This document shows positions 1 to 6,000 of a stretch of DNA of 13,586 nt, piece by piece. Made by a program: the position numbers. Position 1 is the first letter of the stretch, and each line of letters opens with the position of its first letter. The stretch comes from a virus (taxonomy: Duplodnaviria > Heunggongvirae > Uroviricota > Caudoviricetes), in the IMG/VR virus record IMGVR_UViG_2897352509_000015, one strand, 5' to 3'.

Positions 1-3000
1 ATGTTGAAGATAATACCCGGTGCAATTGGATACTTTAATAAAACACTCAATTCAAATCAATTCGATAATAAAGATGCAAACAAAGATAAATTAAATAATA
101 TATATGGTAAGTCTATTGATTATTCAGCGCTGCGTCATCGGGATATAATTATTGCAAAAATAGATTTGTTTATTCAAAGAATCACTCATAATTTATGGCA
201 TGCACGTAAAAAAAATGTGTTTTTAATTGAGCAAATAACTAATCTCAAAGAGTGGGTTAATAAGTATATTGGAGATTGCACTGATGAGGAATTAAACGAT
301 CGTGAATTTATTGCATCAGTTGTTGATCGGGCTATTTTTCATTTCGCGATTAATAGTATATGTAATACTGAGGGTAATAAAGATGCAACGCCCATAGAAC
401 GATATACTTTTGATGTAGAAACCAAGAATGGCCTTCCCTCCACGGTTCAGTTATTTTATGAAGAATCTAAAGATAATGAACCTTTAGCAAATATACATTT
501 ACAAGCAATAGGTTCTGGTTTTTTAACGTTTGTTAATGCATGTCAGAAATATGATGACAACAGCTTAAAATTATTCGCTTCACTGTTAATTTCACTTTCA
601 TATTCTAGTGCCTACACAGATTTAGCAGGGGAAGTGAAGATTAATGATCATAATGGGAACTATCTGACAGCTCAGTTTGAAGAGTTATCTCAACGTGATA
701 TGAAGAAGTACCTGGGAGAGATGAAGCGTCTGGCAGATGGGGGAGAAATGAGTTTTGATGGCTATCTGGATAAGATGTCACATCTGGTGAATGAAGGAAC
801 GCTCGCCCCTGATATTTTAAGCAAAATGCGAGATGCTGCACCGAAATTAATTGACTTTGCTAAGTCGTTTGACCCAAACTCAAAGGAAAAGATTAAAATA
901 TATACAGGTACTTCTAAATTAATTTATGATTTATTCGGGGTTAAATCGGAGAAATAATATGTGAAGTTCTTCGATGGTATGAAAGGTATTACATAAAAGA
1001 ACCCAATGCTTATTGGGTTCTTTTTTCTCTATCAGTGCTATTAGCAGGGAGAGATATCACCGGAGTTTAATGTGTGATTTTTATTTATCGTCGAATCTGT
1101 ATTGTTTATCATTGCTTTTCACAACGCTAACATCTAATAAGATTAGATCTTCACTTCGTGAGAGCTTCATGCCTTGAGAGGATCTCATTTTTCTTTTGCA
1201 ATGAGACAGGCGCTTCCTGTTGTTATGGTATAGTACCCCGTTATTGAGCCTCCTGAACAGTGATGCTGAATAACATAACTCCATGATATATCGATAAAAT
1301 AATCTCTACATTTGAAAATGCACGGTAATTCTGAAATGCAAAAAATCAACCAAACCAGCGCAATGCCTGAAAAAACTGACGTTCACTGGAGTGGTCGGTT
1401 TAGCGTTGCACCAATGCTCGATAGGATGTACCGTTTTTGAAAAACAAATAGTTATATACTTTGTGGGAGCCTATTGGGAACCCGGCGTTTTCATTTCAAG
1501 GTGTAATCCATACGCGGCTTAAGAATGAGATATAATGCGACTTTTAGTGTTCCGCTTGAGAGGCCATGATGCTTACCCTGGACGAGATAGGTCAATCAGT
1601 ACGTAACAATATCCAGTTGATTATTGATCATGTCGGCTTACCTCTTGCTGTTGGTCCGCTCAGTGATGATGATTACAAGATTCTGTGTGGTGGCTATGGT
1701 GAGCTTGAATGGGACTATGCGTTAAGTACCTATGGCAACTCCAGAGAAAAGTATGAGTTCTGCATAAAACTTGTTCAGCAAGGTCGGGTTCAGGGAATAC
1801 CATCAGGAGCAGCAATTTGTGTTTATGGGGTTGAAGAAAACATCTTTCGTATCCATATGATCGAAAGGTTTTCTAGAGAAGATGAATCTCACCCATTGAA
1901 AGGGCGCATGGTTTTACTCACTCTTATGAGTGCTTTTATATTTTGTAAAGCTGTTGAATGTAAAGTTGTCCACATTGTAGAGCCAGTACCAGAACTGGTG
2001 CAGTATTACGAGTCTTTTGGTTTCCGCATGGAACAGTGCGGTTATGTGATGTCGGCAGTCATTGATGAGCTGCAGGATATCTTTCTTAAATTTGCTCAGT
2101 AGGTATAGACGAGAAGGGTCTACAAATTGTAGGATACCCGTCCAGATTACCTTAAAGGTACATCTATGGCAGTCGTTTTGTGCTTAAACTACTAAGAAAC
2201 GATGTCACCAATCGACATGATCGATTGGCATAAGTTAGCGAAACAAGCTAGCTTTAAAGAAAGGGTTAGAGACGCCTTTACTGTCTCGGGAGTTTTCTAT
2301 GAAAGATCAAAAAGCAACCAAGCCACAGGTTAAGTTCGACACAATGAAAGCATTCGCAGGTATGGGTGCTGCTGTTGAAGTTCTGATGAAGGCTGCTCCT
2401 AATGCGTTCACTCACGCTACTGTCTCTGGTAAAGAGCAGCAGGGTAAGCTTCGTCGTCGCAAAGCAGCATGATCATAGCTGGTGCTTTTTGAAAACCCGC
2501 CTTCAGGCGGGTTTTTTCTTTAGTGATGTTCTTTGTCCTTCTGTTTGACTGTTCTGACCTGTTCCCACTCGATACGTCCTTCTTCTCGCCTTTTGTCTAT
2601 GTATTCCGCAAGATCTTGAATATTGATGCAACGTTTTGCTTTTTGTGATGTGCCGATGCGATATGTTGGAACGGGCAACTTACAAGCGTTTGCTTTTGCT
2701 TCTGCCGTGGCTGGACTCATACCAAAGTACTTTTGGCTAACTGCTGAGAGTTCAATGTTTGGGGTATTGAATTCAGCCATCAGTAAAAACAAGGTGTTCA
2801 TAATTTTCTCCATCAAAACCGGCTGCACCCGGGAAAATCATAATTCTGTGCTGGTGGCAGGAATTAATTTCTGCCAGATAGCGGAAACATATTTTGCCTG
2901 ATGACGGGCATCAGCCAGGGCGTTGTGCCGTTCGCCATCGAAAGGCATGTCCATTTTGGGGTCGAATCCGATGGAACGCCCAAGCGTAACGATCGTGCGT

Positions 3001-6000
3001 ACATCGTGGTCATTCCAGTACGCCCACGGGCAGATTTGTCCTGCTCGCTCGTAAGCTCCACGTAAAATTACGTTGTCGAAGGTGGCCCCGTTACCCCAGA
3101 CTTTTAAATATTTCGTATTGTCTGCGTGCCGGTTAATGAAATGGTTTAGTTCTGAGAGAGCATCGCTGATCGACAAAGTATCATCAATACTTCCAGCGAT
3201 ACCAGCGCGACTTTAAATGCGGTAAGTACGTTTTTAACCACATCGATTTTGAATACTATTTCATCACATACAAACGATTTATCGTCTACTACCGTTTCAA
3301 TTCCGGTAATCGTGTTTTGTAGCCATTTGGTTAATTCAGCCATTTTTCATTACCGCCCTTTCGGGCGGTCTCCTGATGTTCTGAGGGTGCAGGAATCCCT
3401 CCGGTTAAGGATTAAATTTTATTTACAGAACTGAATTTAATTATTCAGATATACGTATCTGTAACCTTACGAACCTACTCACTGGATGCCTATTTCATAA
3501 AAATAATCCAGTGGGTTTTATCGTTTTTTCCTGTTCGTTGACCGATAACAGGTTTTCTGTCGGTCAGTACCAATATCTGGCGAACAGGTATTTGCGTTTC
3601 ATTCCATTTAAAAATCAGAACGCCGGATGGACGCAACACACGAAAGGCTTCTTTAAATCCCTGCCGCAAATCATCACGCTAGGTATCTTTATTCAGCCGT
3701 CCATATTTCTTTCCCATCCAGGCGTTATCACCAACACGCTCAAGATGCGGAGGGTCGAATATAACCATCGAAAAAGATGCGTCTGCAAATGGTAGTGCAC
3801 GAAAATCAGCTATCAGATCAGGACTGATAATCAGGCGTCGTCCATCACACAATGTGTGCTCTTCCTTTCTGATATCGCTAAATATCGCCCGGTCGTCATT
3901 CTTATCGAACCAGAACATGCGACTGCCACAGCACATGTCGAGGATTGCTGCATGTCCAGTCACTGGCTGCCTCCTTTGCGAAGCCGTTCCGCCCATTCTT
4001 CAAGGGATTTCTCTGCATATTCACCGGACAGGCCATCAATCGGATGCGATTCATTAGCTAACTCTTCTTTTGCTGACAGAATCATGCGTGTAACGTCGAA
4101 AACTTCAGCCAAAGGCTTATTGATAAATCCGTGATTGAAAGCAGCAGCAAGACGGCTTGCGGTACTTTGTTTTCCAGTGCTGCACATTTAGCTTCAAGCG
4201 CATCGAATTTACGTATCAGGTATTCAGCATCCGTTTCATTCACTTTCAGATCTCGCGGTACACATTTCCCGCGAAGAAACCCTTCCATTTCGAAAACATT
4301 CATGCGCATTTGCGTAACTCCGATAACTCGTTGAAGCGCTCAATAAACATCCCGTAGGCATGGCTCGGTGCCAGTGGAATCACGTTGAACATCTCTGTTG
4401 CCGGGATACCTTCCAGTACAGGCCAGAAAGAGCCATCATCAAGCCCGAGATCGCGGCGTTCGGTTGCCAGCATGATGAGATCGGCATATTTCACAGGCGT
4501 GCTCATAACCGTGGGTAACCCGTATTTCTCACGGATTACGGCGTCTATTTTTTCTTCCATCCGTTTATAGTCGGGAAGAAGGCGTTTCAGTGGCGCGGGG
4601 ATGTCCTGGCAATACGCTTCTGTCGCATCATGCATTAACGCTTCAAAAGCAAATTCCTGCGGTACCAGCTGGCTGCAAAGCACCGCATGTTGGGCGACGC
4701 TGTAGAAGTGTGAAAGATGGCCGGCAAAGCGACAGATATTTGAAAGGGAAACCGCGATATCGTTAATATCGATGTTGTCTTTATTTATCCTGTCATAATA
4801 AAAATGCTTCCCGGAAAAAGTTTTAATAAATGACATTTTGTTCTCCACGTTATATGCGCTGCACCGCGCTGAATTCGGGTAAAAGGAAGCCCTCACCGTC
4901 CGGCGATTATTGAGTCAATTACATTTCCATAAATGCCCCCGTAGGGGCGGTTAGTTTCTCCACAAAACAGAGAAGAACTACCAATAAAGGTTTCTACTTT
5001 GCTGTCCTTGAATTTCTCAACAAGCAGATCACGAAATTCGTTAGCCATTTCTTCCTGCACCGCCTCCAGCTGAATAATGCGCAGAACCAGTACCGGACGA
5101 TCGCCAGTGATAATGCTGAGGCGTAATTTAAACGGACGTTCTTTCAGACCTTCAAACGGAATGCATTTAAATTCAAATGCCACTGGCATAATGTCTTTGG
5201 TCTTCGCTTCGACAGACTCCATCAGGGAGCGTTTGCCGCTGAAGTCATTATCTTCAAAATCAGCGGTCTGGTTTGCTTCAATCGTGATTTTACGGACCGC
5301 CGCAGCCGCTTTTGTTGCCTGAATGGTGTCACCATTAGCATCAAAGCCCACAAGGTAGTCGGCCCAGTCTTCAATCCATTCTGGTTGCCGCCAATCGTAT
5401 CGCGTTTATTGACCCGGCAAACGGGAATGAAACGCCGATGTTTGTGGCGCAGGGCAACCAGATATTCATGAACGACGTGTTCCTGAAGCGCCTGACGGCC
5501 CCCACCATTACCAGTGGTGGAAATCCACCGGCATTTTCCCTGACACCGGATGGAAAGCTGACTGCTAAAAATGCGGATATCAGTGGTAACGTGAATGCGA
5601 ACTCCGGGACGCTCAACAACGTCACGATTAACGAGAACTGTCGGGTTCTGGGAAAACTGTCCGCGAACCAGATTGAAGGCGATCTCGTTAAAACAGTGGG
5701 CAAAGCTTTCCCCCGGGACTCCCGTGCACCGGAACGGTGGCCATCAGGGACCATTACCGTCAGGGTTTATGACGATCAGCCGTTTGACCGGCAGATTGTT
5801 ATTCCGGCGGTGGCATTCAGTGGCGCTAAGCATGAGAGAGAGCATACTGATATTTACTCCTCATGCCGTCTGATAGTGCGGAAAAACGGTGCTGAAATTT
5901 ATAACCGTACCGCGCTGGATAATACGCTGATTTACAGTGGCGTTATTGATATGCCTGCCGGTCACGGTCACATGACGCTGGAGTTTTCGGTGTCAGCATG

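Follow-up and report, generated by a model that had tools for sequence, protein, structure and literature searches.

We analysed a 13,586-nucleotide stretch of viral DNA (IMG/VR record IMGVR_UViG_2897352509_000015, Caudoviricetes; hereafter the window), which is a prophage remnant in dusA, lying between zur/DUF2713 and dusA/pspG and of the type carried by Escherichia coli O157:H7. At positions 2838–3343, a preliminary description made from the sequence alone had taken two overlapping minus-strand open reading frames (ORFs) in different frames for a single exonuclease gene of ∼168 aa, split by a frameshift at an A/T run (ctttaaa, 3211–3217). We find instead that the 65-aa ORF and the exonuclease ORF derive from naturally separate genes, and that the locus, in the early-left region of an mEp460-like lambdoid prophage remnant at dusA, is almost certainly the scar of a deletion.

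Results

A deletion junction at position 3190

The upstream ORF (3343..3146) starts with an ATG at 3343..3341, and its translation begins MAELTKWLQNTITG. The downstream frame is open, as had been described, from 3212 on; it ends at a TGA stop at 2840..2838 and is closed on its upstream side by a TAA at 3215..3213. Its translation contains, in order, IDDTLSISDALSELNHFINRH, VWGNGATFDNVIL and GERHNALADARHQ, the last of which is the H-x4-D motif that had first marked the ORF as an exonuclease. In the PGAP annotation of genomes that carry this type of prophage, 3146..3343 is a separate hypothetical protein, WP_000829415.1, and 2838..3197 is labelled ‘3'-5' exonuclease, incomplete, missing N-terminus’.

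The prophage of E. coli 95NR1, which is related to the one in the window and occupies the identical dusA insertion site, served as the reference (locus L003) for blastn and for a three-way alignment. In blastn the window aligned as two collinear blocks, 1..3190 with L003 8216..5001 and 3190..5383 with L003 3537..1346, and the 1464 bp between L003 3537 and 5001 were missing. The three-way alignment gave perfect identity with the upstream gene through GCTGGAAG and with the exonuclease gene from GTATTGATG onwards; the single G at 3190 is common to both parental sequences, and the junction reads CGCTGGAAGTATTGATG. When longer breakpoint repeats suggestive of homologous recombination were looked for, this 1-nt microhomology was all that was found. 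The retained exonuclease part encodes 116 residues, and homology to intact exonuclease genes begins, among the matches listed from E. coli genomes and phages, at base 154–156 of a 506-nt junction-spanning query, which corresponds to window position 3190. Collinear flanks, a missing middle and one sharp junction are what characterize a deletion-derived fusion. We conclude that a deletion with these breakpoints has removed codons 1–73 of the exonuclease gene.

In 95NR1 the starts of the two genes lie 1397 bp apart, and the genes are therefore in different frames. The number of deleted bases is divisible by three, so that the upstream ORF reads 14 exonuclease codons out of frame and then stops. 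The exonuclease frame is open by chance for 22 nt into foreign sequence, up to the TAA contained in TTTAAAG (minus strand, 3217..3211), and it is this chance extension that gave the heptamer the look of a slip site. The TAA itself belongs to the unrelated upstream gene, in which it is out of frame. Between 3230 and 3190 the window matches the intact 138-aa gene of 95NR1 base for base, so that there is no indel at the proposed shift site, and the discontinuity lies at 3190.

Intact relatives are two separate genes

The gene order in 95NR1 is methyltransferase, a 138-aa hypothetical protein (WP_000829412.1, L003 3384–3800), a 63-aa protein, DUF551 (itself a pseudogene in this strain), the 190-aa 3'-5' exonuclease WP_001061339.1 and PrtN. 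Two further genes thus separate the 138-aa gene from the exonuclease gene. The viable phages mEp460 and phiSTEC1575-Stx2k carry a stand-alone 573-nt (190-aa) exonuclease gene beside an excisionase-like gene, and the intact exonuclease starts MNNLMIDLETMG.

The first 51 residues of WP_000829412.1 are exactly the first 51 of the 65-aa ORF. The 138-aa protein matches phrog_660, a family of unknown function (E = 4e-38), and shares 90% identity with the beginning of a 209-aa gene in a further locus (L004). Searches of the 138-aa and 209-aa relatives against Pfam and NCBIfam returned nothing, and their sole matches were PHROG families without known function.

The exonuclease remnant lacks Exo I

Pfam PF16473 is the Rv2179c-like 3'-5' exoribonuclease domain (DEDDh, RNase T-like fold, T4 DexA-type). 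The downstream ORF matched it, far better than chance would allow, with 130.3 bits (E = 8e-38; gathering cutoff 27 bits), which bears out its earlier assignment as a DEDDh-type exonuclease fragment, and the match was confined to profile positions 75–177 of 177. The intact 190-aa relative covers all of positions 1–177 and scores 253.5 bits. In PHROGs, the downstream ORF hit exonuclease families and the upstream ORF nothing significant; the upstream ORF likewise had zero Pfam family matches.

The window copy is 100% identical to residues 75–190 of WP_001061339.1 and, like the PF16473 members WP_001061339.1 and mEp460 gp26, keeps Exo II (GATFD112) and Exo III (H162-NALA-D167; intact-protein numbering). 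It differs from intact members in having neither profile positions 1–74 nor a start codon of its own, nor Exo I, the D-x-E motif found as I-D7-L-E9-T in the intact protein. By score it belongs to PF16473, whereas the full-length domain and Exo I are absent, as in a pseudogene fragment. In DEDDh nucleases, the aspartate and glutamate of Exo I supply two of the four metal-binding carboxylates. Because residues 1–73, including D7 and E9, have been lost, the remnant should be catalytically dead.

A literature search on Rv2179c yielded nothing outside a Mycobacterium tuberculosis context. T4 DexA and its E. coli homologue EcD have been described as ‘HREX’ exonucleases that cut 5-hydroxymethylcytosine (5hmC) DNA; EcD protects against T4, and the broad DexA/EcD family is widespread in Escherichia (2025, PMC12153337). 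DexA forms dimers and tetramers, and the tetramer residues S87 and D90 are lost in EcD, which has A78 (PMC12153337). Using phmmer, we aligned the intact 190-aa relative with DexA (PDB 8KEL/8KEN) over DexA residues 3–160 (E = 4e-11 for 8KEL); the alignment begins at residue 3 and spans IDLET, the IDxET motif. Unlike EcD, the intact relative retains S80 and D83, aligned with DexA S87 and D90, and judged by these tetramer residues it is not an EcD-type variant. The combination expected of an EcD-type HREX exonuclease, a lost D90 equivalent with the catalytic residues kept, was not found, and the window copy also lacks D7 and E9.

Distribution of the junction

Of 5426 complete E. coli genomes, 201 contain the 506-nt stretch that spans the junction. 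Among the matches listed, identity is 99.6–100%, TW14359 and EC4115 are included, and the carriers, many of them from cattle, are either O157/O157:H7 strains or unserotyped isolates. Altogether 647 genomes match the 506-nt query, ∼450 of them without the junction, and related exonuclease copies reach up to three per genome. When the undeleted 1970-nt stretch of 95NR1 was used as the query, 86 genomes covered at least 80% of it; O157:H7 genomes matched it in two pieces, 26% in total, at 100% identity. No phage record covers 80% or more of the 506-nt query.

Features of the locus and its immediate neighbours in the window
Feature	Coordinates	Strand	Remarks
Deletion junction	3190..3190	-	G shared by both parental sequences; 1464 bp absent relative to 95NR1; three-way alignment and blastn
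3' remnant of the 190-aa Rv2179c-like/DexA-type exonuclease gene	2838..3190	-	353 nt, second base of codon 74 to TGA stop; Exo II and Exo III kept
5' remnant of the 138-aa early-region phage gene (phrog_660)	3190..3343	-	154 nt, 51 codons plus 1 nt, native ATG; identical to start of WP_000829412.1 gene
Chimeric 65-aa ORF	3146..3343	-	51 native residues, then 14 out-of-frame residues VLMILCRSAMLSQN encoded by exonuclease DNA
TTTAAAG, shift site proposed earlier	3211..3217	-	Unaltered relative to intact upstream gene of 95NR1; no lesion
PrtN-family excisionase-like gene, intact	2520..2801	-	Directly downstream; mEp460 counterpart gp25 annotated as excisionase
S-adenosylmethionine (SAM)-dependent methyltransferase pseudogene	3490..3963	-	Amber stop at codon 95 (3679–3681); PGAP ‘internal stop’

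Discussion

Origin of the scar

The intact phage has, in this order, methyltransferase, 138-aa gene, 63-aa gene, DUF551 (Ead/Ea22) gene, 190-aa DEDDh exonuclease and excisionase. A single illegitimate recombination at a 1-nt microhomology has almost certainly removed 1464 bp, which begin in codon 52 of the 138-aa gene and end in codon 74 of the exonuclease gene. The deletion joined the two genes out of frame, giving rise to the 65-aa chimeric ORF, and left the exonuclease frame without a start codon, a ribosome-binding site and residues 1–73. The product is an ordinary deletion-derived pseudogene, whose pseudogene status is already in the public PGAP annotation, and probably neither ORF has a function. 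In E. coli K-12 and O157:H7, cryptic lambdoid prophages decay in the same way, by low-microhomology illegitimate deletions that fuse unrelated gene fragments. The scar shares its element with a nonsense mutation, a hybrid gene and an internal deletion of much larger size; nothing notable sets it apart from those prophages, and the case is a textbook example.

Nothing speaks against the deletion itself, but some points limit this account in its full form. The size of 1464 bp is that relative to 95NR1, and not necessarily that of the historical event, because what lay between the two genes is modular: in 95NR1 DUF551 is itself a pseudogene, and mEp460 has different genes. The loss of nuclease activity is predicted from the loss of a motif. 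Moreover, translation of a 112-aa exonuclease fragment could in principle begin at TTG 3176, which is in frame.

Alternative explanations

If TTTAAAG were the site of a ±1 frameshift within one ∼168-aa exonuclease gene, this would explain why two ORFs in different frames overlap and why the exonuclease frame is open back to 3212. The upstream ORF, however, is unlike any exonuclease, and a conceptual 168-aa fusion of the two ORFs matched PF16473 over exactly the same positions, 75–177, as the downstream ORF alone. We reject the frameshift because a true one would have regained profile positions 1–74, which the fusion did not. Intact family members are 190 aa long and start MNNLMIDLET, the TTTAAAG stretch is the same as in the intact unrelated gene, and among the matches listed exonuclease homology ends within two bases of 3190 rather than at 3211–3217. 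The preliminary description had itself named homologues with two separate genes as evidence that would overturn the single-gene reading, and 95NR1 provides just these, while in mEp460 and phiSTEC1575-Stx2k the exonuclease gene stands alone. A frameshift pseudogene, in which the ORFs are collinear with one homologue apart from an indel, was thus not what we observed: there are two genes and no indel at 3211–3217, and we consider this explanation to have a negligible chance of being right. A programmed frameshift or natural fusion is ruled out, the N-terminal part being the unrelated phrog_660 protein and the genes being separate in viable phages.

Nothing specific favours a sequencing or assembly artefact, in which a region has been collapsed or misjoined, beyond the fact that the window matches complete RefSeq genomes at no more than 98.7% overall. 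Such an error would have to recur in the 201 independently sequenced complete genomes that contain the 506-nt junction stretch, and we give it practically no credence.

It may also be asked whether the scar is inert. If the 65-aa peptide, or a fragment without Exo I started at TTG 3176, were made, it might have a role such as interfering with the intact paralogous exonucleases that other prophages contribute to the genome. The upstream ORF has kept its native start, genomes hold up to three related copies, and members of the family oligomerize, T4 DexA as dimers and tetramers (PMC12153337). Against this, no start codon of the exonuclease fragment is served by an evident ribosome-binding site, and the identity among O157:H7-type genomes reflects clonality, not selection. 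In addition, the immunity and pL region has been deleted, and the operon promoter was probably lost with it; the transcription of the exonuclease operon is doubtful for this reason. We therefore regard a role for the scar as highly improbable, and its more specific form, in which the scar is expressed and the 65-aa peptide or the Exo I-less fragment acts as a dominant-negative partner of intact DexA-like exonucleases from other prophages of the same genome, as very unlikely.

Significance of the scar

The biological weight of the deletion scar is small, as it adds one more lesion to a cryptic prophage that survives chiefly as a vehicle for NleG-type effector genes. For annotation, it illustrates that an overlap of two ORFs in different frames does not always mean a frameshifted gene, even when one ORF has a catalytic motif; the extent of domain-profile coverage is a suitable check for apparent frameshifted genes. 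The exact junction can be used as a clonal marker, since only 201 of 5426 complete E. coli genomes have it and many of the matches listed are O157/O157:H7. Intact counterparts of the lost gene are members of the DexA/EcD family, which has lately been linked to phage DNA scavenging and to defence against T4, and the copy in this element can consequently no longer supply whatever that activity provides.

Other lesions and the prophage context

The left arm of the prophage had been described as decaying, and we agree: it has several lesions, each produced by a different mechanism. The methyltransferase gene is interrupted by the amber codon reported earlier, a TGG to TAG change, and is intact in 95NR1 (157 aa, WP_000145671.1). 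The neighbouring gene at 3960..4309 (minus strand) had been called frameshifted. It is indeed out of frame in the window; the cause is a crossover of two diverged alleles and not a simple indel. The gene has the O157:H7 116-aa allele in its 3' part, its 5' part comes from the 120-aa allele of an e14-like prophage, and the patch 4163–4982, which comprises the 5' part of the hybrid gene and yfdR, is 99.9% identical to the e14-like prophage of E. coli KCJ3K291. The gene is out of frame because the crossover at ∼4163/4164 is off by one base. In canonical O157:H7 genomes it is intact (WP_001242740.1). Further on, a DUF2303/YfdQ fragment at 4967–5381 (minus strand) abuts and overlaps a phage tail-tip fragment at 5369–6091 (plus strand). 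Their contact at ∼5370–5381 marks a very large internal deletion that has removed the immunity and pL region together with the replication, lysis, head and most tail genes.

In the spacer that follows the methyltransferase gene, a hairpin with a perfect 7-bp stem and a GAAA loop (ACCGCCCGAAAGGGCGGT) is located at 3352–3369 on the minus strand, 8 nt before the ATG that opens the 65-aa ORF.

The cargo end of the prophage remnant is intact, in contrast to the broken early region. Three intact DUF1076 (NleG-type effector) genes at 8519–9091, 9164–9793 and 9875–10516, all on the plus strand, lie downstream of intact Lom and tail-fibre genes, and are followed on their 3' side by a capsid-gene fragment, DinI and a dusA-type integrase (10987–12084).

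Compared with O157:H7 TW14359, the window has no mismatches in 1500–4000 and 5000–12000. Mismatches number 72 in 1–1500 (DUF2713 gene), 76 in 4000–5000 and 24 in 12000–13586 (dusA/pspG). Among complete RefSeq E. coli genomes, none matches the whole window at more than 98.7%, and none matches the left flank at more than 98.5%. The latter value and the pattern of mismatches with TW14359 place the same decayed prophage in a chromosomal backbone other than that of canonical O157:H7.

At the left end of the element there is a displaced 105-bp 5' fragment of dusA (1318–1422, plus strand), ∼85% identical to 12173–12276 (plus strand), where the phage has restored the 5' end of the functional dusA on the right. 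This pair of dusA sequences is presumably the attL/attR signature expected of dusA-specific integrases.

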